64,000 nt of DNA from contig CAXXVO010000017.1 of assembly GCA_963422645.2 (NCBI GenBank), positions 160,001 to 224,000 on the forward strand, in the 5' to 3' direction. Position 1 is the first letter of the stretch. Every line of letters begins with the position of its first letter. The translations under genes and the position numbers were made by a program. Positions 34,729-58,552 of the stretch are shown here, piece by piece. Below the pieces are notes generated by a model. It did no database searches. It had not been told where the DNA came from and was given only the letters and a program-made list of their open reading frames with translations. The stretch comes from Alphaproteobacteria bacterium. Lineage in GTDB: Bacteria > Pseudomonadota > Alphaproteobacteria > UBA828.

Positions 34729-34930
34729 TGTCAATCGGCTTTCAATACTGACCCCCGATCGGCGTGCAAAATTGACCCCCCTGAGTGGCACGGCGGAGGT
34801 TGTCCCGGTAGCCAATAGGGGGGACCCGCGCGGCTTCGTGTGGCGCCCTGCGCTACGCGGAGCGAAGCCGCGTGGGGGGTCCCTGTTGGCCCACCGGGGC
34901 AACCGGGCCGCAAGGGAGGCCGGCGGCGGG

Positions 34931-35659
34931 TCAGGAGCGGTTCTTGAAGCGCCAGCTCTCGTTGCCGGTCTCGATGATCTCGCAATGATGGGTGAGGCGA
35001 TCGAGCAGCGCTGTGGTCATCTTGGGGTCGCCGAAGACGGATGGCCATTCGCCGAAGGCGAGGTTTGTGGTGATGACGATCGAGGTGCGCTCGTAGAGCC
35101 GGCTCATCAGATGGAAGAGCAGCTGCCCACCGGCCTGGGCGAAGGGCAGGTAGCCGAGCTCGTCGAGGATGACGAAGTCGCGGCGGACGAGCTGGTCTGC
35201 AGTGCGGCCCTGGCGTCCGGCGCGAAGCTCGGCCTCGAGGAGGTTGACCAGGTCGACGACGTTGTAGCACCGGCCGCGCGCGCCCTTGCGGATGCAGGAC
35301 CGCGCGATGGCGACGGCGAGATGGGTCTTGCCGGTACCGGTGCCGCCGACCAGCACGATGTTGCGTTTGCCCTCGAGGAAGCCGCCGCCGGCGAGCTCCT
35401 GGATCAGGGGCTCGTTGACCGGCGAGGCGGCGAAGTCGAAGTCGGCCAGCTCCTTGACCGTCGGCAGCTTGGCGGAGGCCATCTGGTACTTGATCGAGCG
35501 GGCCCTCTTGTCGGCGATCTCGACCTGCAGCAGCGTACCGATGATCTGTTGCACCGGATGGCGGCGCTTGAGCCCGTCGGCAAGGATGTCGTCGTAAGCG
35601 GCGCGCATACCTGCGAGCTTCAGCTGGGTCATCATCTCCAGCACATCATGACGCTCCAT
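34931..35659 (-). CDS. istB: IS21 helper ATPase
   Basis: [33 protein letters not shown]. Confidence 0.95.
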
Positions 35660-37160
35660 GACCGGCCTCCCTCAGGCTGTCGTAGCGCTGACAGTCGGCT
35701 ACCGGCTTGTGGCGAAGCTGCAGGCCCTCGGGCGTCGGGATGATTGCCGGCGGTGCCGGCTGGCGCTGCCGGGCGAGGATGTTGAGCACCACGTCGGCGC
35801 TGCAGGCACCGCAGTCGAGCGTCTCGGCACAGGCCGCCTCAACCGCCTCCAGTCCGTCCTCCAGCACCGCCGCGAGCACCTTGACGAACTGCCGGTCGCC
35901 GTCGTCGTGGCCCGCGAGCCGGGTTCGCAGGCGGCCGAGCGCGTTGGGCAACTGCCAGTCCTTGAAGGGCGCGCCATTGCGTAGCGCGCCGGGCTTCCGC
36001 GTCAGGATCGGCACGTAATGCCACGGATCGTAGACGAACCGGCCGCGCCCGAAGCTGCGGGGGTGCTCGGCAACGGTCTCGCCGTCCTGGCGGATGACGA
36101 TCCGATCGGCATAGGCCCGCACGTCCACCGGCCGGCCGACGGCGCGGGCCGCGACGCTGTACTGGTTGTTGTCGAAGCGCACCAGACAGGTCTTCGAGAC
36201 CGACACCTCGCTGGCATGGAAGCCGTCGAAGGGGCCGCGATACGCCATCAGGAAGGGCTGCTCCTCCTCGAACACCTGCCACACCGTCTTGCCCGGGATT
36301 GTCGGATGCGGATGCTTCTTGGCGTCCTCGATGCACCGATCCATCAGCCACTCGTTGATCTCGGCGTAGGAGCGGCCCCGCGGGATGGGCACGAACAGGC
36401 GGCCGCGAAGGTCACCCACCTGCTTCTCGACCTGCCCCTTCTCCCAGCCAGCCCCTGGCGTGCACGCCACAGGCTCCACCAGATGGTGCGAGCACAGCTC
36501 CTGGAAGCGGCGGTTGTAGTCCCGCTTCTTGCCCACGAAGATCGTGCTCACCGCCGTCTTCATGTTGTCGTAGATGCCCCGCCGGCAGACCCCGCCGAAG
36601 AAGCGGAAGGCACGCTCGTGCGCCTCGAAGACCATCTCCTGGCTCTCGCGGGGAAAGATCTGGACCAGATACATCCGGCTGTGGCACAGCCGCATGTGCG
36701 CCGCCTTCACCCTGGTCGTCGCGCCCGACAGACGCGCGTACTCGTGGCTCCAGTCGAACTGGTAGGCCTCGCCGGGATCGAAGATCAGCGGCACATAGGC
36801 CTGCGCCGGCGACAACAGCCGCCACCGGCGCCGCCAGGCCCTGGCATAGCGGCGAACCGCGTCATAGCCGCCCTTGTAGCCCAGCGACACAAGGTCTTCA
36901 TGAATCCGCAGAAGAGACAGCCGATCCTTGCGTGCCTTCTTCTCGTTGGCCTTCAGCTGGCGCTCAAGCTCCTCCACCCACAGCCCAAGCTTCGGCATCG
37001 GCTGGATCTTGCGCTCGTAGCTGTGCGAGGTCGCATCGCCCCGCACCACCTTGCGTATCGTGTTCTTGGAAACCCTCAAATCCCGGGCGAGCTTCTTGAT
37101 CGGAACGCCCTTCACCAGATGATCCCGACGGATCTTCGCGATCGTTTCCACAACCAGCAT
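35646..37160 (-). CDS. istA: IS21 transposase
   Basis: [26 protein letters not shown] motifs. Confidence 0.95.
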
Positions 37161-37279
37161 CTCCCCCACCACCCCGTCCGTCCAAACGACGAGGTGTGTT
37201 CATGGACACAAATCCAAGGGGGTCAATTTTGGACGCCGATCACCCCCAATAGGGGGTCACTTTTCCACGCTTAACAACA

Positions 37280-39739: not shown

Positions 39740-40849
39740 ATGAACATGCCAACGATGAAAATGCACCTCGACCTGCTGCCCGATTTCCTGCGCGGCACCG
39801 CCTTTCTCGGCACTGGCGGCGGCGGCGATCCCTATGTCGGCGGGCTGATCCTGCGCCAGAAGCTGGAGGAAGGCGCCGACATCACGATCAAGGACCCGAT
39901 GGAGCTCGACGACGACGACTTCGTCGTCTCGGTCGCCAACATGGGCGCGCCGACCGTGATGGTCGAGAAGATCCCGAGCGCGCACGCCATGGTGGAGTGC
40001 CTGCGCTCGATCGAGCACGAGCTGGGCCGCACGGCCACCGCCCTGATCGCCGCCGAGGCCGGCGGCATCAACGGCACGCTGCCCATGGTGATCGGCGCCA
40101 TGACCGGGCTCCCGGTGGTGGACGGCGACGGCATGGGGCGCGCCTTCCCCGAGCTACAGATGTGCACCTTCGGCGTCTACGGTGTGCCTGCGTCTCCCAT
40201 CGTGCTGCGCGACGAGCACGGCAACGAGGTCATCGTGCGCGCCCGCAGCAATCTCGAATCCGAGTGGTTCGCACGGGTGGTGTGCACCCGCATGGGCACA
40301 AAGTCGGAGATCGCGCTCTACGCCATGTCGGGCAAGGAGGCGAAGGAGACCGGCGTGCTCTACACCACGACGCTCGCCATGGAGATCGGCCGCTCCATCC
40401 GCGAGGCGCGCGAGACCCAGAGCGACCCCTTCGCCGGGCTCCAGCACTACTTCCAGACCTCCCGCGACAAGCGCTTCTGCGCGGTGCTCTTCGAGGGCAA
40501 GGTGGTGGACCTCCTGCGCGAGACAACCAGCGGCTGGGCCATCGGGCGGGTGATCTTCGAGGGCATCGGCACGAACACGGGGCAGCAATTAGAGGTACGC
40601 TTCCAGAACGAATTTCTGGTCGCTCAACAGGGCGAGCGCACGCTCGGCATGGTGCCGGACCTGATCTGCATCCTCGATCAGGAGAACGCGGAGCCGATCA
40701 CCACCGAGGGGCTCAAGTACGGCCAGCGGGTGCGCGTGGTGGGGGTCAGTGTGCCGCCGGTGATGCGCACGCCCGAGGCGCTCGAGGTGTTCGGCCCCAA
40801 GTATTTCGGGATCGCCGACGTCTACACGCCAATCGAAGAGCTGGTCTGA
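39740..40849 (+). CDS. DUF917 family protein
   Basis: LGTGGGGDP, MGAPTV..EK, E.GG.N, DGDGMGRAFPELQM, FQNE, PDLI. Confidence 0.88.
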   Translation: MNMPTMKMHLDLLPDFLRGTAFLGTGGGGDPYVGGLILRQKLEEGADITIKDPMELDDDDFVVSVANMGAPTVMVEKIPSAHAMVECLRSIEHELGRTATALIAAEAGGINGTLPMVIGAMTGLPVVDGDGMGRAFPELQMCTFGVYGVPASPIVLRDEHGNEVIVRARSNLESEWFARVVCTRMGTKSEIALYAMSGKEAKETGVLYTTTLAMEIGRSIREARETQSDPFAGLQHYFQTSRDKRFCAVLFEGKVVDLLRETTSGWAIGRVIFEGIGTNTGQQLEVRFQNEFLVAQQGERTLGMVPDLICILDQENAEPITTEGLKYGQRVRVVGVSVPPVMRTPEALEVFGPKYFGIADVYTPIEELV

Positions 40850-41174
40850 GCGCCGCGCGGCCGAACTTCGACCCGCACCTAAAACACCTCTCCCTGTCCC
40901 ATATGTCCGCTACGATCATAGCATACTGTAATTGCAGCCACTTTGAATTGTCAGGCGCTATCTCGCAAGCGTATCGTCAGCGGATTCATTGCAACGCTTG
41001 CGCTTTCCTGCGCGGCTTCGTCGCTGCCGGCCTGCGTATTCGTTCGGTATCCGTAAGCGTTCGTTCAGGCCGTGGAAGGGTACGCCGGCATTGTGTCCGC
41101 TCAAACGCATTCCCGACCGCGACCGCTGAGACTCTAGCGATTGAGGGGTAACCATCCGGCGTAGGCCGCCTGTA

Positions 41175-41184
41175 TGTTGTTAAG
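41175..41184 (+). repeat. Tip of an IS21-type terminal repeat, continued at 42893-42913
   Basis: TGTTGTTAAG + CGTGGAAGATTGACCCCTGAT resembles the IS21 tip TGTTGTTAAGCGTGGAAAAGTGACCCCCTAT (reverse complement ending at 37279). Confidence 0.75.
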
Positions 41185-41229
41185 CTTCCACCGGCGCGGC
41201 GCTCCGGCTCGGTCGCGGGAGTAACGGGG

Positions 41230-41445
41230 GCTTGTGTCTGCGACGCCTCGGTCGTGAACTGGCGGCGGGTGGGGTGAAGAGGCCGTTCGTGCACTGGCGT
41301 GCTGTAGCGGCACCCGCTGTTAAGCTTGGCCCGAACCATTTTGTCGGCTCCGGTCACTGATGGCGCGGGTTTCCCGCGACCTCGTTCAAGAGAATGGGAC
41401 TTCGACCATGGTTCCTCCCCGCTCGCGACGGAGATGAAAGGCGGG
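41230..41445 (+). ncRNA. Putative bridge/seek RNA of IS110 element A (boundaries approximate)
   Basis: Two parallel CACTG-hairpin-guide modules; TGTTAAGC (41318-41325) equals target, TCAAGAG (41386-41392) equals own right end. Confidence 0.65.
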
Positions 41446-41455
41446 AGGATGTTCC

Positions 41456-42874
41456 ATGGCGCGCAAGTCTCGAAGAACCCGTCGCCTCAGGGTGGTGAAC
41501 CCTGACTGCGCAGGGATCGACATCGGCAAGGACCGGCACTTCGTGGCGGTCGAGGCGGAACGCAGCGATGAGCCGGTGCGTTCGTTCGGCTCCTTTACCC
41601 GCGATCTGGCGGCGATGGCGGCGTGGCTGGCGTCGTGCGGGGTGACGAAGGTCGCAATGGAGTCGACCTCGGTCTACTGGATCCCGGTCTACGAGACGCT
41701 GGAGCGCGCGGGCTTCGAGGTGATGCTGGTGCCGCCGCGCATGACGAAGCAGATCGGCGGGCGCAAGAGCGACGTGCTGGACTGCCAGTGGATCTGGCAG
41801 CTGATGTCCTACGGTCTGCTGCGGGGAGCGTTCCGTCCGGGCGACGAGGTTTGCCCGCTGCGCTCCTACGCCCGCCAGATGAGGCGGCTGACCGAGGACC
41901 GCTCCCGCTGCGTCCTGCACATGCAAAAGGCGCTGACCGAGATGAACGTCAGGCTCGACTCGGTGATCGCCAACATCACGGGACTGACCGGCCAGCGCAT
42001 CCTGCGCGCGATCGTCGACGGCGAGCGTGACCCGGAGCGCCTGGCGACGCTCCGCCACCGGGGCATCAAGGCCGACGCCGATACGATCGCCGCGAGCCTT
42101 CAGGGGACGTGGCGCGAGGAGCATCTCTTCGCCCTCGAACAGGCCATGCAGCGCTACGACTTCCTGACCCGGCAGATCGACGACTGCGAGGCCCGGGTGA
42201 TGGCCGAGGTCGAGCGCCTGACACCGCCGGACGATCCCCCGGAGGGCGGTGCACCGGACCCTGCCCCCGGCACGACCTCGGACACCGCGTCGGGCCGCTC
42301 CGCGAACGCCGCAACCAACGACACCGGCAAGGAGGGCATCCAGCCCCTGGCGTTGCGCAAGATGATGGGCGTCGACCTCACCGCGATCCCCACCGTCGGT
42401 CCCGGTACCGCACTGGTGATCGCCTCGGAGATCGGCCCGGACTTCTCCGCCTTCCCCTCCGCTCAGCACTTCTGCTCCTGGCTTGCGCTCGCGCCGGGAA
42501 CCAGGATCAGCGGCGGCAAGAATCTCCCCGGCAAGTCGCCGAAGGCGGTCAACCCCGTCGGACAGGCCCTGCGCTTGGCGGCCATGGCCGCGCGCCGCAG
42601 CCAGACCTTCATCGGCGCCAAGCACCGCGCAAGGCTCGCCCGAATGGACACCCCCGTCGCGATCAAGGCGACCGCCCGCGAACTCGCCTGTCTGATCTAC
42701 CTCATGGTGACCGAGGGCCAGGAATACGTCGAGCAGGGCATCGGCGCCTACGAGAAGCGGCGCCTCAACAGAAAGTTCGCTCATCTCGACCGCCAAGCCC
42801 AAAAGCTCGGGTTCCAACTCATCCCGAAAACGCAAGGAGAGGAAAAACAGAACCCAATGCCGTCAATCGCTTAG
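41456..42874 (+). CDS. IS110-family recombinase/transposase (472 aa)
   Basis: GIDIGK, AMESTSVYW, KSDVLD (DEDD); C-terminal LAPGTRISGG serine motif; GGGAGG RBS. Confidence 0.93.
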   Translation: MARKSRRTRRLRVVNPDCAGIDIGKDRHFVAVEAERSDEPVRSFGSFTRDLAAMAAWLASCGVTKVAMESTSVYWIPVYETLERAGFEVMLVPPRMTKQIGGRKSDVLDCQWIWQLMSYGLLRGAFRPGDEVCPLRSYARQMRRLTEDRSRCVLHMQKALTEMNVRLDSVIANITGLTGQRILRAIVDGERDPERLATLRHRGIKADADTIAASLQGTWREEHLFALEQAMQRYDFLTRQIDDCEARVMAEVERLTPPDDPPEGGAPDPAPGTTSDTASGRSANAATNDTGKEGIQPLALRKMMGVDLTAIPTVGPGTALVIASEIGPDFSAFPSAQHFCSWLALAPGTRISGGKNLPGKSPKAVNPVGQALRLAAMAARRSQTFIGAKHRARLARMDTPVAIKATARELACLIYLMVTEGQEYVEQGIGAYEKRRLNRKFAHLDRQAQKLGFQLIPKTQGEEKQNPMPSIA

Positions 42875-43068
42875 GCATCTGTTACTCAAGAGCGTGGAAG
42901 ATTGACCCCTGATTGGAGATGCCGTAATGGGGCTTGGCGCCGGCGTGCAGCGTCTCGGCCTGTCGCGATGACGGCGAATCGGTTGTCGTTGCCCTTACAC
43001 GCGTAGCGTGTTCACGGGGTCTTGCCGCAAGGCGCGCCCCAATTCCTCTGGAGGAAAGGGCAACGACA

Positions 43069-44109
43069 ATGGACGTCTGTATCGGGCTGGATGTATCGCT
43101 GGCAAGCACGGCGGTTTGCGTTCTCGACGAGAAGGGCAAGATCGCGACCGAGGCGCAGGTCGCCAGCACGCCTGAAGCGCTGGTTGGGTTCCTGCACAAG
43201 CTGCCGCACGAGATCACCGCGATCGGTCTCGAGGCCGGTCCCTTGTCCCACTGGTTGCACAAGGGAATGACCGACGCCGGCTTCGAGGCCGTGTTGATGG
43301 AGACCCGGCAGGTAAAGGGTGCGCTGAAGGCCATGCCGATCAAGACCGATCGCCGGGACGCCGAGGGCATCGCACGGCTGTTGCTGATGGGGTGGTTTCG
43401 GCCGGTGCACTGCAAGTCGGTGTCATCGCAAGAGATGCGAGCCCTCCTGACCTCGCGCAAGTCCGTGCTGGACGCGATCATCCGCCTGGAGGTCTCGCTG
43501 CGCGGCGTCCTGCGTAACTTTGGCCTGAAGCTGGGCCTGATCTCGAAGGGCCGCTATGAGGCCCGAGTGCGGGAGTTGGTCGCCGGCAACGCGATGCTGG
43601 AAGCGGCAGCCGAACCGATCCTGGGCGCGCGGGCGGCCCTGCGCCGCGAGTTCGCCGAGCTGGAGAAGCTGGTCCGCACTCTGGCAAGGCAAGACAGGGC
43701 ATGCCGCCTGTTGATGACCATGCCGGGCGTGGGGCATGTCATAGCCCTGACCTTCAAGTCCGCGATCGACGACCCGGAGCGGTTCCGAAGATCGAAGGAT
43801 GTCGGCCCCTGGGTAGGGCTGACGCCGGCGCGGGAGCAGTCCGGGGAGAGGGATATTGTCGGCCGGATCACCAAGGCCGGCGATGCCGGTCTGCGCGCGG
43901 CTCTTTACCAAGCCGCAACGGTGATGCTGAACCGCACAGGGCCGAACTGGCTGAAGGCTTGGGCGCTACGTTTGGCGAAGCACAGGGGCAAGAAGCGCGC
44001 GACCGTTGCCTTGGCCCGGCGCATCGGTGTTGTGCTTCACCGAATGTGGCGGGATGGAACCGAGTTCCGCTTTACGCGCGAGGAAGCGATGGCGCTTCGG
44101 ACGGCATAG
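43069..44109 (+). CDS. IS110/IS1111-family recombinase/transposase (346 aa)
   Basis: IGLDVS, GLEAG, KTDRRDA (DEDD); GLTPAREQSGE serine motif; GGAGG RBS. Confidence 0.93.
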   Translation: MDVCIGLDVSLASTAVCVLDEKGKIATEAQVASTPEALVGFLHKLPHEITAIGLEAGPLSHWLHKGMTDAGFEAVLMETRQVKGALKAMPIKTDRRDAEGIARLLLMGWFRPVHCKSVSSQEMRALLTSRKSVLDAIIRLEVSLRGVLRNFGLKLGLISKGRYEARVRELVAGNAMLEAAAEPILGARAALRREFAELEKLVRTLARQDRACRLLMTMPGVGHVIALTFKSAIDDPERFRRSKDVGPWVGLTPAREQSGERDIVGRITKAGDAGLRAALYQAATVMLNRTGPNWLKAWALRLAKHRGKKRATVALARRIGVVLHRMWRDGTEFRFTREEAMALRTA

Positions 44110-44164
44110 GCGCGGCTGCATCCCATCGGCAGTCAGCGAGGAGAGGAGGAAAGAGCCGCGCCTG

Positions 44165-44360
44165 AAGGTGGGCGAGCCACCAACGTCCCCTCGCCGGGAC
44201 GCGGTCCCCGATGATGCACGTGGGCCCACTTGTTTGCCGAACCGGCCTGTCGTGTTCGAGCACGCTGTGGAGATAGGCACTCGGGAACCGATTTGGACTG
44301 GGCATGATGTTGGCAGCCGATGCGCTGACCACGGACAGAAGCGAGAACCCGGCGAAGGAC
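44165..44360 (+). ncRNA. Putative bridge/seek RNA of IS1111-type element B (boundaries approximate)
   Basis: Stem 44202-44211/44281-44290 encloses GGGCCCACT and TGGAG (target); next loop has GGCAT and ACAGAAG (donor junction). Confidence 0.75.
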
Positions 44361-44552
44361 ACAAGACGTTGAGCAAGCGCGAGATCGATACGGTCGGCCC
44401 CATTGCACCTGACACCGGCAACCTCCTCCGCGCCTCACCCGGCGCCTCATAGCCAGGCCGAAGGAGCCCCTACACCACGCCAGGAAAACAACTGATTGGC
44501 GCGACAATGATCTATTGAAAATCGAGCTTGACGGGAAACGCCCCATTACAGA

Positions 44553-44632
44553 AGTGGGCCCCTGGGGCCGGACAGTTTCAGGCGGCCGATTTGACCGGCT
44601 TGCGGGACTGCTCCTCCTCGAAACGGTCGGGG
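44553..44632 (-). mobile_element. IS3-family right-end remnant (its terminal 3 bp are at 42914-42916)
   Basis: Minus strand PDRFEEEQSRKPVKSAA* then CTGTCCGGCCCCAGGGGCCCACT|CCA, an IS3-like end; family assigned from recalled similarity. Confidence 0.6.
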
Positions 44633-44939
44633 TGTCAACGCCGGATGAAGATTCGGCCAGAGGGCGGCGCAAAAGACTGCCACTCTGGGTGATGCGTCGT
44701 TGTGACGGTTTTTCGGCGGGCGCGGTCCGTGGAGCCATCCAGAGCTCAAGCGGTCCGCGCGCGCCGGCCGACCGGAGGGCGGCCTACTGGTTTCGGTTTG
44801 TCGAGGTTCAACTTTGCGCCGTCAACGGACACGCCTGATGGCGGGATGACGGTGAGTGCCCGAGCACCGTCACGGCAGGTGGCGGGGGCTGGGGCTGGGC
44901 GCCTTGGCCGATCGGTGTCGGTCGTCGGCGTGCCGGGGT

Positions 44940-45704
44940 TCAGCTTGCGGTCTTGTTCCTGCGTGCACGGCTCTGGCTGAGGCGGTAGCTGTCGCCGTTC
45001 ATCTCGAGGATGTTGACGTGGTGGGTGAGACGATCGAGGAGCGCCCCGGTGAGGCGCTCGGAGCCAAAGGTCTCGGTCCATTCGTCGAAGGGGAGGTTGG
45101 AGGTGATCAGGGTGGCGCCCCGTTCGTAGCGCTGGGAGACCAGCTCGAACAGCAACTCGGCGCCGGTCTTGCTCAGCGGCACGAAGCCGACCTCGTCGAT
45201 GATCAGCAGCTTGAGACTTGCCAGCTGCTTCTGCAGCCGCAGCAGTCGTCATTCGTCACGCGCCTCCATGAGCTCATGCACCAGCGCCGCTGCGGTGATG
45301 AAGCGCACGCTCAGCCCCTTCTGGCAGGCGGCCAGTCCGAGCCCCAGGGCGACATGGCTCTTGCCGGTGCCCGATGGGCCGAGGGCGATGACGTTCTCGC
45401 GCCGCTCGATCCATTCGCAGCGCGCCAACTCCAGCACCCGCGGCTTGTTCAGCGCGGGCATGGCCTTGAAGTCGAAGCTGTCGAGGCTCTTGGCGAGCGG
45501 GAACTTCGCCGCCTTGATGCGCCGCTCGACCATGCGCCGTTCGCGCTCGATCAACTCCAGCTCCGCCAGCCGGGCCAGGAACTGGATATGATCCAGGCCC
45601 TCGGCCGCGCACTGGTGCGCCACTTTCTCGTATTGGCGCAGGAAGGTCGGCAGCTTCAGGGCCTTGAGGCGGTGCGCCAGCAGGATGTGGGGCGTGTCCG
45701 TCAT
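44940..45704 (-). pseudogene. istB: istB with internal stop codon
   Basis: GPSGTGKSH...EARDE*RLLRLQ...IDEVGFVP; TGA at 45249-45251. Confidence 0.88.
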
Positions 45705-47071
45705 GCCGCGTCCTCCGACAGCAGGCACATGTAGCTGGCCGCCGAGGTCCTGCCGACGGTAGCCTTCGGCAGATAGGGGTAGACATCGAGGTCGAGCTTC
45801 GGCGGGCGCTTCTCGAGGCGGCACAGCACCAGGTGCTTGACCGCGTCGAAGCCTATGGCGCCCAGGCGCAGGGCATCCTTCACTGCGGCGTGGAGATCCT
45901 CCAGCCCGAAGCTCTCCAGCAGCCGCAGGACCTGCACGTACTCCCGCCGCCCCGCCTTGAGCGCGCGTGCCTCCATCAGGCGGCGCAGGGTCTGGAAGGC
46001 GGGCGGCAGGTCCCATCCGGCGAGCGGCGCTGCCTGGTCCAGGGCGCCGATCTTCTGCTCGATCAGGGGCAGATAGTGGATCGGCTCGAAGATCATGTCC
46101 TCACGCTCATAGGACCGGGGATGGCGGGCGATGACGTCTCCGCCACAGCCGATCACCACTCGATCGACGTAACCGCGTACCCAGACGTCACGATGGCCAT
46201 AGGCCACCGGCACCGAGTAGTCGTTGGTCCGATAGCGAACCAGAGACTGCGAGCTGACCTGGCCGGGAGCCTGGTCACAGGCCTCGAAGGGCGTAGCCGG
46301 CGGCGCGGCCATGGCCGCCACATCCCGCGCCAGGCGCTCTCCGATGGTCTCGCGGTGTCCGCGCAGGATATCGCCCTGGCGGCTGTGGCATTGCTCCTCG
46401 AGCCGCAGGTTGAACTCTTCCCAGCTCGCAAACCGTGGCAGCGGCACCATGAAGTTGCGCCGGGCCAGGATGCGCGACACCAGGCAGCGGTCGTTGTCGT
46501 AGAGAACCGATCGGGGAACCCCGCCGAAGAAGGCGAAGGCATGCACATGCCCGTCCATCCACGCCTCGGCCGTCGCCGCAGGGTAGGCCCGCACGTAGCA
46601 GGCGTCGCTGTGCGGAAGATCGAACACGAAGAAGTGCGCCTTGCGCGCGATACCCCCGATCACCGCCCGCGCCTCGCCGAAGTCCGCCTGCCCATGCCCC
46701 GGCGGATGGATCAGCGGCACGAACATCTCTCGCCGCCGGCGCCGATGCTCGCGCACATGATCCTTCACAATCGTGTAGCCGCCGCTGAACCCGTGCTCGG
46801 CCCGAAGACGGTCGAAAATGCGCTTCGCCGTGTGCCGCTGCTTGGGCAGCTGCTCCAGATCGTCCCGCAGCCACCCGTCGATGATCTCGATGAACCCGTC
46901 CAGCTTCGGACGCCGAAGCGGCGCCGTCCGCCGATAGCCCGGCGGCGCCGAAAACTGCAGCATCTTCTTCACGCTCTCGCGTGAAATCCCGAAGTGACGC
47001 GCCGCAGCCCGCTCACTCATCCCGTCCCGGCAGGCGAGACGGACCTTCCGATAAAGTTCCACGGTATGCAT
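45701..47071 (-). pseudogene. istA: istA with apparent in-frame deletion in the catalytic core
   Basis: QADFGEA and YDND present, but the KGxVE motif is missing (VSRILA|RRNFMVP). Confidence 0.75.
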
Positions 47072-47181
47072 GCCCCCGCCCTCCCCGTCGCCGGGAAGGG
47101 CCTATCTGGCAGAGTCTTGCTCCGCCCGCTGCGAGACAATCCCGCCGCTACCGTGGACTAATTTCGCACCGCCGTTTCCAG

Positions 47182-47364
47182 ATCGAAGAGTTCCATTTCT
47201 GCATGGCGCATTTCGACTTCATCATGAAGGTGTCCGCTCCGGACGATGAGTCCGTGAGCGCGTTCGCCATGGCGGTCCGCCGATCCGGAAACGTAACCGC
47301 CAAAGTTACGCGCGCGTTCACGCCGGATGAGTGGGGAAACATCGTGGGCCGTCTTGAGGGTTAG
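47182..47364 (+). pseudogene. 3' fragment of a GYD-domain-like protein truncated by IS21
   Basis: IEEFHFCMAHFDFIMKVSAPDDESV...GNV...TRAFTPDEW. Confidence 0.55.
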
Positions 47365-47570
47365 CCCGAGCTGCGCTTCGGCGCGCCGCGAGCGACGTCC
47401 GTCCTCACCACCCGCAGGTGGCTCCGCGTGCCGGAAAAACGATGATCCGTCAGCGCTTCGGAGTCAGCCCCTCGTTTGACGCCGATCGGTGAGTCAAGTA
47501 GTGTTTTTCTTGGCACTCAAGCACGCGTCAATGGGGCGGTGCGCCTCCACGAGGATGGAGGTGTTTGATG

Positions 47571-56001: not shown

Positions 56002-56203
56002 TGTCAATCGGCTTTCAATACTGACCCCCGATCGGCGTGCAAAATTGACCCCCCTGAGTGGCACGGCGGAGGTTGTCCCGGTAGCCAATAGGGGGGACCC
56101 GCGCGGCTTCGTGTGGCGCCCTGCGCTACGCGGAGCGAAGCCGCGTGGGGGGTCCCTGTTGGCCCACCGGGGCAACCGGGCCGCAAGGGAGGCCGGCGGC
56201 GGG

Positions 56204-56932
56204 TCAGGAGCGGTTCTTGAAGCGCCAGCTCTCGTTGCCGGTCTCGATGATCTCGCAATGATGGGTGAGGCGATCGAGCAGCGCTGTGGTCATCTTGGGG
56301 TCGCCGAAGACGGATGGCCATTCGCCGAAGGCGAGGTTTGTGGTGATGACGATCGAGGTGCGCTCGTAGAGCCGGCTCATCAGATGGAAGAGCAGCTGCC
56401 CACCGGCCTGGGCGAAGGGCAGGTAGCCGAGCTCGTCGAGGATGACGAAGTCGCGGCGGACGAGCTGGTCTGCAGTGCGGCCCTGGCGTCCGGCGCGAAG
56501 CTCGGCCTCGAGGAGGTTGACCAGGTCGACGACGTTGTAGCACCGGCCGCGCGCGCCCTTGCGGATGCAGGACCGCGCGATGGCGACGGCGAGATGGGTC
56601 TTGCCGGTACCGGTGCCGCCGACCAGCACGATGTTGCGTTTGCCCTCGAGGAAGCCGCCGCCGGCGAGCTCCTGGATCAGGGGCTCGTTGACCGGCGAGG
56701 CGGCGAAGTCGAAGTCGGCCAGCTCCTTGACCGTCGGCAGCTTGGCGGAGGCCATCTGGTACTTGATCGAGCGGGCCCTCTTGTCGGCGATCTCGACCTG
56801 CAGCAGCGTACCGATGATCTGTTGCACCGGATGGCGGCGCTTGAGCCCGTCGGCAAGGATGTCGTCGTAAGCGGCGCGCATACCTGCGAGCTTCAGCTGG
56901 GTCATCATCTCCAGCACATCATGACGCTCCAT
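56204..56932 (-). CDS. istB: IS21 helper ATPase
   Basis: Same translation as 34931-35659. Confidence 0.95.
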
Positions 56933-58433
56933 GACCGGCCTCCCTCAGGCTGTCGTAGCGCTGACAGTCGGCTACCGGCTTGTGGCGAAGCTGCAGGCCC
57001 TCGGGCGTCGGGATGATTGCCGGCGGTGCCGGCTGGCGCTGCCGGGCGAGGATGTTGAGCACCACGTCGGCGCTGCAGGCACCGCAGTCGAGCGTCTCGG
57101 CACAGGCCGCCTCAACCGCCTCCAGTCCGTCCTCCAGCACCGCCGCGAGCACCTTGACGAACTGCCGGTCGCCGTCGTCGTGGCCCGCGAGCCGGGTTCG
57201 CAGGCGGCCGAGCGCGTTGGGCAACTGCCAGTCCTTGAAGGGCGCGCCATTGCGTAGCGCGCCGGGCTTCCGCGTCAGGATCGGCACGTAATGCCACGGA
57301 TCGTAGACGAACCGGCCGCGCCCGAAGCTGCGGGGGTGCTCGGCAACGGTCTCGCCGTCCTGGCGGATGACGATCCGATCGGCATAGGCCCGCACGTCCA
57401 CCGGCCGGCCGACGGCGCGGGCCGCGACGCTGTACTGGTTGTTGTCGAAGCGCACCAGACAGGTCTTCGAGACCGACACCTCGCTGGCATGGAAGCCGTC
57501 GAAGGGGCCGCGATACGCCATCAGGAAGGGCTGCTCCTCCTCGAACACCTGCCACACCGTCTTGCCCGGGATTGTCGGATGCGGATGCTTCTTGGCGTCC
57601 TCGATGCACCGATCCATCAGCCACTCGTTGATCTCGGCGTAGGAGCGGCCCCGCGGGATGGGCACGAACAGGCGGCCGCGAAGGTCACCCACCTGCTTCT
57701 CGACCTGCCCCTTCTCCCAGCCAGCCCCTGGCGTGCACGCCACAGGCTCCACCAGATGGTGCGAGCACAGCTCCTGGAAGCGGCGGTTGTAGTCCCGCTT
57801 CTTGCCCACGAAGATCGTGCTCACCGCCGTCTTCATGTTGTCGTAGATGCCCCGCCGGCAGACCCCGCCGAAGAAGCGGAAGGCACGCTCGTGCGCCTCG
57901 AAGACCATCTCCTGGCTCTCGCGGGGAAAGATCTGGACCAGATACATCCGGCTGTGGCACAGCCGCATGTGCGCCGCCTTCACCCTGGTCGTCGCGCCCG
58001 ACAGACGCGCGTACTCGTGGCTCCAGTCGAACTGGTAGGCCTCGCCGGGATCGAAGATCAGCGGCACATAGGCCTGCGCCGGCGACAACAGCCGCCACCG
58101 GCGCCGCCAGGCCCTGGCATAGCGGCGAACCGCGTCATAGCCGCCCTTGTAGCCCAGCGACACAAGGTCTTCATGAATCCGCAGAAGAGACAGCCGATCC
58201 TTGCGTGCCTTCTTCTCGTTGGCCTTCAGCTGGCGCTCAAGCTCCTCCACCCACAGCCCAAGCTTCGGCATCGGCTGGATCTTGCGCTCGTAGCTGTGCG
58301 AGGTCGCATCGCCCCGCACCACCTTGCGTATCGTGTTCTTGGAAACCCTCAAATCCCGGGCGAGCTTCTTGATCGGAACGCCCTTCACCAGATGATCCCG
58401 ACGGATCTTCGCGATCGTTTCCACAACCAGCAT
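56919..58433 (-). CDS. istA: IS21 transposase
   Basis: Same translation as 35646-37160. Confidence 0.95.
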
Positions 58434-58552
58434 CTCCCCCACCACCCCGTCCGTCCAAACGACGAGGTGTGTTCATGGACACAAATCCAAGGGGGTCAAT
58501 TTTGGACGCCGATCACCCCCAATAGGGGGTCACTTTTCCACGCTTAACAACA

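Follow-up and report, generated by a model that had tools for sequence, protein, structure and literature searches.

Insertion of two IS110-family elements into the termini of IS21- and IS3-family elements at a nested locus, and guide segments that match these termini

How do five pieces of insertion sequences (IS) come to lie stacked at one locus, with two terminal repeats cut only a few nucleotides (nt) from their tips? The question is raised by positions 41175-47181 of the window studied here, a 64,000-nt stretch (C18:160001-224000) of a 5.9-Mb, 23-contig alphaproteobacterial genome. The two interrupting elements, A of the IS110 group and B of the IS1111 group, both belong to the IS110 family, and what they interrupt are the ends of other IS: A lies in the tip of an IS21-type terminal repeat and B in the tip of an IS3-family element that we call IS3-X. 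We consider it likely, at roughly 85%, that the locus reflects successive site-specific insertions among mobile elements in which A and B choose their sites via bridge RNAs or seekRNAs of their own. The anatomy of the locus, the site specificity of both elements and the covariation of their guides with their flanks can be seen directly when the DNA of different copies is compared. An earlier interpretation made from the letters of the window alone (the sequence-only reading) had likewise taken both elements to be RNA-guided, and this is upheld in that both are members of the IS110 family and carry putative guide segments spelling the ends of other mobile elements.

The five pieces of the stack

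Open reading frames (ORFs) were listed and the sequence was read over 41000-47400. The nested stack of five IS pieces that had been proposed is present in full, at essentially the positions first given for it:

41175-41185, plus strand: outermost 11 nt (TGTTGTTAAGC) of the left (istA-proximal) terminal repeat of an IS21-type element, severed from the remainder by element A
41186-42893, plus strand: element A, an IS110-group IS, with two other full copies 99.5-99.8% identical by blastn (on contigs C3 and C5), plus fragments
41456-42874, plus strand: A transposase, 472 aa, with DEDD_Tnp_IS110 and Transposase_20 domains (Pfam, NF033542)
42894-42913, plus strand: continuation of the IS21-type terminal repeat, 20 nt (GTGGAAGATTGACCCCTGAT), up to the IS3 insertion point
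42914-42918, plus strand: first 5 nt (TGGAG) of an IS3-family right-end tip, intact tips reading TGGAGTGGGCCCC
42919-44554, plus strand: element B, an IS1111-group IS, with five other copies >99% identical
43069-44109, plus strand: B transposase, 346 aa (Pfam, NF033542)
44555-44632, minus strand: IS3-family right-end remnant, 78 nt, including the last orfB codons on the minus strand
44633-47181, minus strand: second IS21-family element (Pfam, NCBIfam, translation, other copies)
45701-47071, minus strand: istA of the second IS21-family element, 456 aa, intact
44940-45704, minus strand: istB of the same element, with an in-frame TGA at 45249-45251

When 41175-41185 and 42894-42913 are joined across A, they reproduce the outermost 27 nt at the end of a full-length but decayed IS21 relative (C5:23494-26078), the first 16 nt of 42894-42913 being identical to the repeat of that relative, and the joined tip closely resembles the istA-proximal end of the intact IS21 of the window. 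The assignment of this 31-nt piece to an IS21-type element is made solely by its identity to the end of the C5 copy. The proposal that A had split an IS21-type tip 10 nt in proves right within an ambiguity of 8-11 nt, since AGC is common to the target and to A at the junction, and the tip is the left, istA-proximal one. AG is found at 41183-41184 and again at 42891-42892, and the insertion point, which falls after nt 10-11 of the tip, is here written TGTTGTTAAG^C.

The IS3 tip split by B reads TGGAG on the left of the element and TGGGCCCC on its right. The right-hand segment (44555-44632, beginning TGGGCC) is 94.5% identical over 91 nt to C7:230775-230865, which runs into an ORF with an rve domain, and it represents the orfB-distal (right) end of IS3-X; the suspicion that 44553-44632 was an IS3 end is thus confirmed from 44555 onwards. 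B splits this end 3 nt in, as had been stated, under the convention that gives B terminal extensions of 7 and 3 nt (see below). The IS3 element itself sits within the same IS21 repeat that A splits, and the nesting is three levels deep, from IS21 through IS3-X to B.

The IS21 family is recognised by istA (rve and Mu-transposase C-terminal domains) and istB (an AAA+ helper) lying between TG...CA ends. In the window these ends read TGT...ACA, istB matches PF01695 (IstB), and the scores against NF033546 (cut-off 160) are 285.2 and 212.8 bits, the second being that of the istA at 45701-47071. The sequence-only reading held that a decayed IS21 had removed the rest of the IS3 element. A second IS21-family element is indeed in place and its istB decay consists of a single nonsense codon, which the copy on C7 reads through; position 45251 is G in contigs of other sequencing runs, giving CGA instead of TGA. 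No direct repeats flank the element (44633-47181), so that either this element or a later deletion may have removed the remaining IS3. Assembled contigs from 4 of 24 sequencing runs (X1, X18, X21 and X22) were compared with 40900-47400; these contigs are fragmented and none spans the interval. Loose contig ends in these runs start at 44221, which is the start of the variable guide of B, and one X21 contig connects an IS21-like repeat to position 42914; like the G at 45251, these observations are consistent with the anatomy given here. The C7 copy of the second IS21-family element (C7:230600-234900) lies in an IS3-X, close to the left end of that element, and is truncated, its istB frame running into amidohydrolase-like sequence to give a 499-aa ORF.

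The order of insertion that we infer would be as follows. An IS21-family element would first have landed at the locus, and its left terminal repeat would then have been entered by the 1260-bp IS3-X, 3 nt beyond TGACCCC, which is the site that IS3-X uses genome-wide. B would next have entered the IS3-X tip at TGG-AG^TGGGCCC, and A the IS21 tip, 10 nt inside it, at TGTTGTTA-AG^C. Finally, a second IS21-family element, or an adjacent deletion, would have removed the remainder of both IS3-X and the first IS21.

Target sites and guide segments of A and B

The A transposase matches PF01548 (E = 1e-21) and PF02371 (E = 5.5e-12) in Pfam, and scores 260.2 bits (cut-off 140) against NF033542, 'IS110 family RNA-guided transposase', over profile positions 1-343 of 343. 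The gene is preceded by 270 nt of non-coding sequence (41186-41455) and followed by 19 nt (42875-42893). This is the arrangement of the IS110 group, which the available text of PMC11187229 and of PMC11208160/PMC11208158 describes as having the longer non-coding region upstream of the transposase gene and a short right end. Apart from the window copy, blastn of this genome returned full copies on C3 and C5, a partial copy at C8:563486-564491, two short left-end fragments and a paralogue, 76% identical, at C8:237548-239169. In the C5 copy (C5:21500-26400) a 1-nt length difference splits the transposase into ORFs of 236 and 295 aa. In a plasmid collection, the relatives of A that a search recovered are only 60-80% identical, carry the label 'IS110 family transposase' and in no case cover at least 80% of the query.

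In this genome all five A left ends are preceded by TGTTGTTAAGC, and all four A right ends are followed by N9-TGACCCC. The DNA outside TGTTGTTAAGC differs between all copies, and the host repeats are of two kinds. In the window and on C5, A has the right flank GTGGAAGATTGACCCC, which on C5 continues into an 86.6%-identical IS21 relative with a fragmented istA, and the C3 and C8 copies have ACGCTTTGTTGACCCCCC, of which an uninterrupted version exists at C21:52137. Uninterrupted TGTTGTTAAGC plus GTGGAAAAGTGACCCCC forms the istA-proximal end of the intact IS21 and occurs 70 times in the genome; overall the tip pattern was counted 75 times in the free state (70 intact IS21 ends and five miniature elements) and five times carrying an A left end. 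Reversed-pattern controls for the tip and junction counts gave no matches. Since all A ends share one nucleotide position in one and the same 11-nt tip and the controls are empty, chance is excluded.

When A is aligned with its C8 paralogue, the two elements differ in two short blocks of the 5' non-coding region, around which the sequence is conserved. Together with the region that contains them, their positions in the window are:

41186-41455, plus strand: A 5' non-coding region, 270 nt, predicted to encode a bridge RNA
41318-41325, plus strand: A left-target guide, TGTTAAGC, which changes together with the flank in the C8 paralogue and in relatives from other genomes
41386-41392, plus strand: A left-donor guide, TCAAGAG

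In the first block A has TGTTAAGC where the paralogue has CCCATAGC, in each case exactly the 8 nt to the left of the element. In the second, A has TCAAGAG and the paralogue has TCGAGAG, each matching the right end of the element that carries it, the paralogue ending in CTCGAGAG. Furthermore, flank and guide are the same, at the same aligned position, in relatives with other targets: TGCTAAGC (locus L017), TTACCAGT (L032) and TCATGAGC (L012). The ends of the C8 paralogue were also searched for in loci L006-L035, allowing up to seven mismatches, and only the C8 copy itself matched. A left-target guide that matches the target and a left-donor guide that matches the element's own end is what the available text of Durrant et al. 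(2024, PMC11208160) and Hiraizumi et al. (2024, PMC11208158) describes for the bridge RNA of IS621. Going by that text, A resembles IS621 in its long 5' and short 3' non-coding ends, in a core dinucleotide duplicated at both junctions, and in the order of a left-target guide with the top-strand sequence of the target followed by a left-donor guide matching its own right end. It differs from IS621 in having AG (or AGC) rather than CT as core, a transposon tip rather than a repetitive extragenic palindromic (REP) sequence as target, and a 472-aa transposase, and in that no convincing right-target guide was found in it. In the mechanism we propose, a 5' loop segment identical to TGTTAAGC would read the bottom strand of the IS21 tip and TCAAGAG would read the right end of A itself.

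A-like DNA was found in 22 of 61 genomes (this one and 60 relatives), mostly of the same genus. Orthologues 95-96% identical to A again lie at TGTTGTTAAGC, sometimes in head-to-tail arrays. Occupied and free tips number 28 and 22 in genome G004, seven and one in G005, and zero and three in G011; G013 has no A left junction, six free tips and one A right junction. The 13 A right junctions of G004 have 10 different N9 sequences. The arrays contain two or three copies (G004:C1:267106-272225, 599188-602600 and 1272330-1275742; G005:C4:1371730-1375292; loci L007, L029 and L030), and their joints of right end to left end, ...CTCAAGAGC followed directly by CTCCACC, have the sequence expected of a circle junction.

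The B transposase (346 aa, close to the ~340 aa of DEDD transposases of the IS1111 group) scores 241.2 bits against NF033542 (cut-off 140) and contains PF01548 and PF02371. B has 445 nt of non-coding sequence downstream of its transposase gene and 150 nt upstream, and its inverted repeats are subterminal, with 7 nt beyond them on the left and 3 nt on the right when the IS is counted as AGATGCC...AGA. Both are features of the IS1111 group, the subterminal inverted repeats with 7- and 3-nt terminal extensions being given in the available text of PMC11187229. AG is duplicated at the two junctions of B (42917-42918 and 44553-44554). The parts of B on which targeting would depend are:

42924-42933 and 44540-44549: B subterminal inverted repeats GTAATGGGGC and GCCCCATTAC, a perfect 10-bp pair
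44203-44291, plus strand: predicted seekRNA/bridge RNA core of B, from the consensus fold of eight relatives and covariation with the flanks

All six B copies are preceded by TGGAG, and in four of them the element is then followed by TGGGCCCCTGGGG (TGGGCCCCTGGGGYCGG). The 3' non-coding region contains two variable blocks within an otherwise conserved stretch, and in the consensus fold of the eight relatives these form the two sides of one internal loop between a long conserved outer stem and an inner hairpin. Guide 1, the 5' strand of the loop (44221-44229, TGGGCCCAC), is the complement of core and right target (AG+TGGGCCC). Guide 2, the 3' strand (44267-44274, GTGGAGAT), equals TGGAG plus AT, that is, the left target with the core and the first 2 nt of the IS. 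Jointly the two strands give TGGAGTGGGCCC, the 12 nt with which the IS3-X repeat begins. The observation that the left match of B stops at the terminal TG of the IS3 element was therefore accurate, being explained by guide 2, and the flanks outside it vary. One strand of this 3' internal loop would thus recognise AG+TGGGCCC by complementarity, and the other, identical to TGGAG+AT, would specify the left side.

The same correspondence runs through the B family. In six lineages the 3' guide strand consists of the left flank with AG and AT, the pairs of left flank and guide 2 being TGGAG/GTGGAG, CCTGAG/CCTGAG, GCAAAG/GCAAAG, ACCAAG/ACCAAG, TACCAG/TACCAG and AACAG/AACAG, and the right flanks are the reverse complement of guide 1, as in AGCCGCTCGC (L040) and AAGACGCAG (L057). 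According to the available text of Siddiquee et al. (2024, PMC11187229), the seekRNAs of ISEc11/ISXne4, ISKpn4 and ISPa11 target a short linear site, attC sites and REPs, and in IS1111-type seekRNAs the top-strand complement comes ahead of the segment matching the bottom strand. B shares with these elements the non-coding region downstream of the transposase gene, the 7- and 3-nt extensions and the order of the guides, and its family shares with them conserved stems around a loop that is replaced in relatives aimed elsewhere, which that text calls 'natural reprogramming'. It differs from the elements treated there in being aimed at an IS3 tip. This genome also contains an 85%-identical relative of B in three copies (C8:627089-630117 and C16:189489-190935), two of them in tandem; their guides are GATCAG and GGTTCAAAA, and their flanks, such as GATCAG^GTTCAAATG, are not IS-like.

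B-type left ends with TGGAG to their left were also found in G009 and G010, and in G011 a B-type right end abuts an IS3-like tip. An 85%-identical relative of B in G004 (L038, G004:C1:4870252-4874696) and in G013 (L047) lies instead at ATGGCAAAG^CACCG, three codons into an orfA like that of IS3-X. The guides of this relative, GCAAAG and CACCGAAAC, match the site, which corresponds to the orfA start of IS3-X in this genome. This suggests a second, independent aim at the same type of IS3 element, and repeated retargeting.

Host elements and the weighing of explanations

The intact 2551-bp IS21 is present in about 70-80 copies by blastn, nearly all of them 100% identical and making up ~3.5% of the genome, and this copy number and identity point to a very recent burst. 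Two of the copies flank the stack:

34729-37279, minus strand: intact 2551-bp IS21, with an unoccupied tip at 37269-37279 that carries the exact left target of A
56002-58552, minus strand: second intact 2551-bp IS21, identical to the first and directly repeated, with an unoccupied tip at 58542-58552

The prediction that the tips at 37279 and 58552 are vacant targets agrees with the assembly, in which both carry the exact left target of A and no insertion. The main IS21 tip type, GTGGAAAAGTGACC, is likewise unoccupied in the assembly. As direct repeats 21,273 bp apart, the two copies enclose ~18.7 kb that includes the stack, in a composite-transposon-like arrangement.

We had considered every TGTTGTTAAGC-N9-TGACCCC to mark an autonomous IS21. 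This was rejected, since most such tips in G004 belong to 92-bp miniature units and, in this genome, units of this kind adjoin ordinary genes. Of 35 tips fetched from G004 (22 free and 13 occupied), only five are followed by istA and istB, and miniature units account for 18 of the 22 free tips (~92-104 bp) and 11 of the 13 occupied ones (92 bp). These units have a start like the left end of IS21 and finish ...GCCGAnCAACA or ...GCTTAACAACA. As a family they are intergenic and comprise several subfamilies with the start TGTTGTTAAGC-N9-TGACCCC, a GCCGATCGGC box and a ...CAACA end; examples are at C7:25350-25441, C3:148385, C6:68964, C10:313132 and C21:52137, and at L102-L136 in G004. One 103-bp copy has both tips (C7:25350-25441). 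In this genome they adjoin ordinary genes (zwf, pgl, edd, a nitroreductase and an integrase), and, judged by the similarity of their ends, they probably represent IS21-like miniature, non-autonomous elements. Miniature elements are the target at two of the four A right junctions here and at 11 of the 13 examined in G004, and the niche of A is therefore the tip common to an IS21 subgroup and its miniature derivatives. The zwf-pgl-edd genes (C3:148385-154826) are bracketed by two inward-facing miniature elements, one of them occupied by A.

IS3-X was defined from the complete 1260-bp copy at C5:89524-90783, in which uninterrupted TGGAGTGGGCCCCTGGGGYCGGACAG forms both ends. Its orfA product has a helix-turn-helix domain (HTH_Tnp_1), its orfB product has rve/rve_3/HTH_21 and scores 294.8 bits against NF033516 (cut-off 160), and its ends read TGGAG...CTCCA with 3-bp target duplications (GAT on C5, ATA on C8), all as in the IS3 family. 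A second complete copy (C8:525510-526763) has B in both tips and lies within an IS21 repeat, flanked on each side by the duplicated ATA. Three free IS3-X tips contain the exact 12-nt target of B. All nine exact IS3-X tips, including the three without B, adjoin IS21-type terminal repeats, 3 nt beyond TGACCCC(C), at either IS21 end and in either orientation (C5:89524-90783, C8:525510-526763, C7:230783 and window 42910-42918). The palindromic C-run/G-run of the IS21 end resembles the repeat of IS3-X, which appears to be a DDE transposon with a preference of its own for IS21 ends. An IS66-family element (NF033517, 289 bits; 19-bp terminal repeats) represents a third kind of IS in the same tip region: it occupies an IS21 left tip (L143:79-2586; C3:190100-192800) with GTTAAGCG duplicated on both sides, and adjoins the C3 copy of B. 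Target duplications of this length, 8 bp, are typical of IS66.

A and B, in all or almost all of their copies, thus lie at a fixed position in the terminal repeat of another element, in IS21-type and IS3 tips and not mostly in non-IS sites, and by sequence they appear to be targeted to IS ends. Several points weigh against successive RNA-guided insertion as the explanation. Two B copies (on C3 and at C8:417705) have no IS3 sequence on their right and need an additional deletion; for the C3 copy, loss of IS3-X by deletion at a short CCA repeat would fit the junction. One A orthologue in G004 (L008) lies at CCTGTCAAGC and lacks an IS21-like repeat on the right, and all 70 IS21 tips of this genome that carry the exact left target of A are unoccupied, which means either that A is rarely active or that the IS21 burst is very recent. 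By eye, no right-target guide for A was found in the family alignments; only a conserved ..CU able to pair with the AG core was seen, and the natural right flanks vary freely (N9), so that the specificity of A seems to depend on ~8-11 nt on the left side only. An Rfam scan of 40500-47500 at E <= 1 returned no relevant family, only a spurious long non-coding RNA match. Single-sequence folds of the 5' non-coding region of A and the 3' non-coding region of B are no more stable than those of shuffled sequences (z = +0.99 and +0.68), folds of this kind being uninformative at this G+C content, and in the A-family consensus fold one of 36 pairs is compensatory, which is not decisive. The poor fold and Rfam results for A lower the structural support but not the guide evidence. 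Lastly, the guide RNAs, circle junctions and transposition events are all deduced from comparison of DNA.

If A and B are directed to IS termini, what do they gain, and what does the host element lose? IS termini are conserved, present in many copies and dispensable to the host, and would consequently make self-replenishing landing sites. The idea of IS ends as multiplying safe harbours fits well with sites that are multi-copy, conserved, dispensable and often non-coding; the tips are indeed targets, but many targets of A are 92-bp miniatures and not autonomous IS. For the occupied element, separation of the tip from the part of the repeat that binds the transposase would probably disable that end, and it is plausible that an occupied end is dead with its terminal nucleotides 1.6-1.7 kb from the remaining repeat. 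In IS21, abutted ends form a junction promoter, and an insertion in the tip would break such a promoter.

It is from this point that A and B could be seen as RNA-guided hyperparasites whose insertion inactivates the occupied ends and so slows the spread of IS21 and IS3 measurably, possibly to the benefit of the host. In favour of this, six of nine exact IS3-X tips are occupied by B, only one of the two complete IS3-X copies has free ends, and the B copies (six) outnumber those of IS3-X; in addition, the relative of B in G004 and G013 is aimed at a second IS3 site, the orfA start. For IS21-type tips, A is found in 28 of 50 recognisable tips in G004 and seven of eight in G005, and the C5 relative hosting A has a fragmented istA. 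Against this, A occupies none of the 70 tips of the expanded, near-identical IS21, and most of its targets in G004 are the 92-bp non-autonomous elements (11 of 13 occupied tips and 18 of 22 free ones). Since the targets of A are often miniature and non-autonomous, insertion there restrains nothing autonomous, and the two A-occupied full-length IS21 of G004 keep uninterrupted istA and istB, like the three free ones. We regard measurable restraint as unlikely overall. As advanced in the sequence-only reading it finds no support for the IS21 of this genome, and it is more plausible for IS3 and for the sister genomes.

A broader form of the idea is that guide evolution towards transposon termini has been recurrent and selected in the genus, with the IS110 family acting as a working layer of RNA-guided hyperparasites. 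Here the lineage of A would track the 11-nt tip of an IS21 subgroup and its 92-bp miniatures, filling more than half of them in some genomes, and that of B would have been aimed independently at two IS3 sites, the tips and the orfA start. If occupied ends are dead, A and B would cap the proliferation of IS3 and of IS21 and its miniatures, and transposons would themselves be carriers of a natural, programmable anti-transposon system. We find this doubtful.

The opposite position, that there is no targeting and that A and B have piled up by chance in an IS-dense region or are passive passengers of IS21 and IS3, can draw on the extreme IS-richness of the genome (about 80 copies of the 2551-bp IS21), on the IS66-family element that also lies in an IS21 tip with GTTAAGCG duplicated, and on the IS21 repeat found to the left of all six B copies. 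This last feature is accounted for by the site preference of IS3-X itself (nine of nine tips). Chance or passive carriage is already contradicted by the junction census, as the same junction nucleotide recurs in all copies despite different host repeats and outside flanks; moreover, the guides spell the flanks and covary with them, and B is present in both ends of one IS3-X. We consider it very improbable.

That the boundaries are mis-set, TGTTGTTAAGC and TGGAG being the elements' own left ends, would explain why these sequences accompany every A and every B copy, but is hardly credible given that deletion of A or B restores sequences found uninterrupted (70 IS21 tips, C21:52137 and three free IS3-X tips) and that the 77%-identical relatives of A and 85%-identical relatives of B have other bases there, matching their own guides.

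Precedents and wider occurrence

Targeting of the terminal repeats of other elements by the IS110 family is already known. IS4321 and IS5075 target the terminal repeats of Tn21-family transposons; the target is reportedly the 38-bp repeat of the Tn3 family. Like B, these are IS1111-group elements with subterminal inverted repeats that occupy one fixed position in the terminal repeat of another element. B differs from them in that its target is the first 12 nt of an IS3-family repeat, both ends of which are used, and in that its guide segments are identifiable and covary with the flanks. IS1383, for which the available account (Muller, Lauf & Herrmann 2001) gives the inverted repeats of IS1384 in Pseudomonas putida H as targets, is like A and B a member of the IS110/IS1111 family that uses the inverted repeats of another IS, and forms a direct precedent for the idea from which this work started. 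In the present case the hosts are IS21-type (with miniatures) and IS3-type, and two elements of two subgroups are stacked at one locus. In the literature searched, we did not find IS21-type, miniature-element or IS3 tips named as IS110-family targets, although the supplementary tables of PMC11187229 (>300 IS) and PMC11208160 may list such sites.

The locus extends a known habit to two new host families, IS21 with its miniatures and IS3, and to three-level nesting. Both IS110 subgroups are represented by guide segments that can be compared directly with their targets, with relatives aimed elsewhere serving as built-in controls, and the main use of the locus is to illustrate guide reprogramming and layered parasitism of transposons on transposons. 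For annotation, insertion of this kind accounts for the IS21 and IS3 ends in these genomes that look broken a few bases from the tip. It also offers a tractable system in which to ask whether the targeting of transposons by transposons merely gives safe landing sites or also limits the targeted elements, with the untouched burst of ~70-80 IS21 copies here, set against majority occupancy in sister genomes, as the contrast to be explained.

A wider scan of genome contigs returned 36 stretches, of which 28 were on one alphaproteobacterial metagenome-assembled genome (MAG) chromosome, four on Rhodospirillales MAG contigs and four in MAGs of other phyla. In G008 (L011, G008:C7:2157192-2161892), a 77%-identical relative of A has entered a second copy of itself within the segment that encodes the guide; to its left is ...GCACCCGATTACCAGT, the element's own left-target guide region, a case of self-targeting of guide-encoding DNA.

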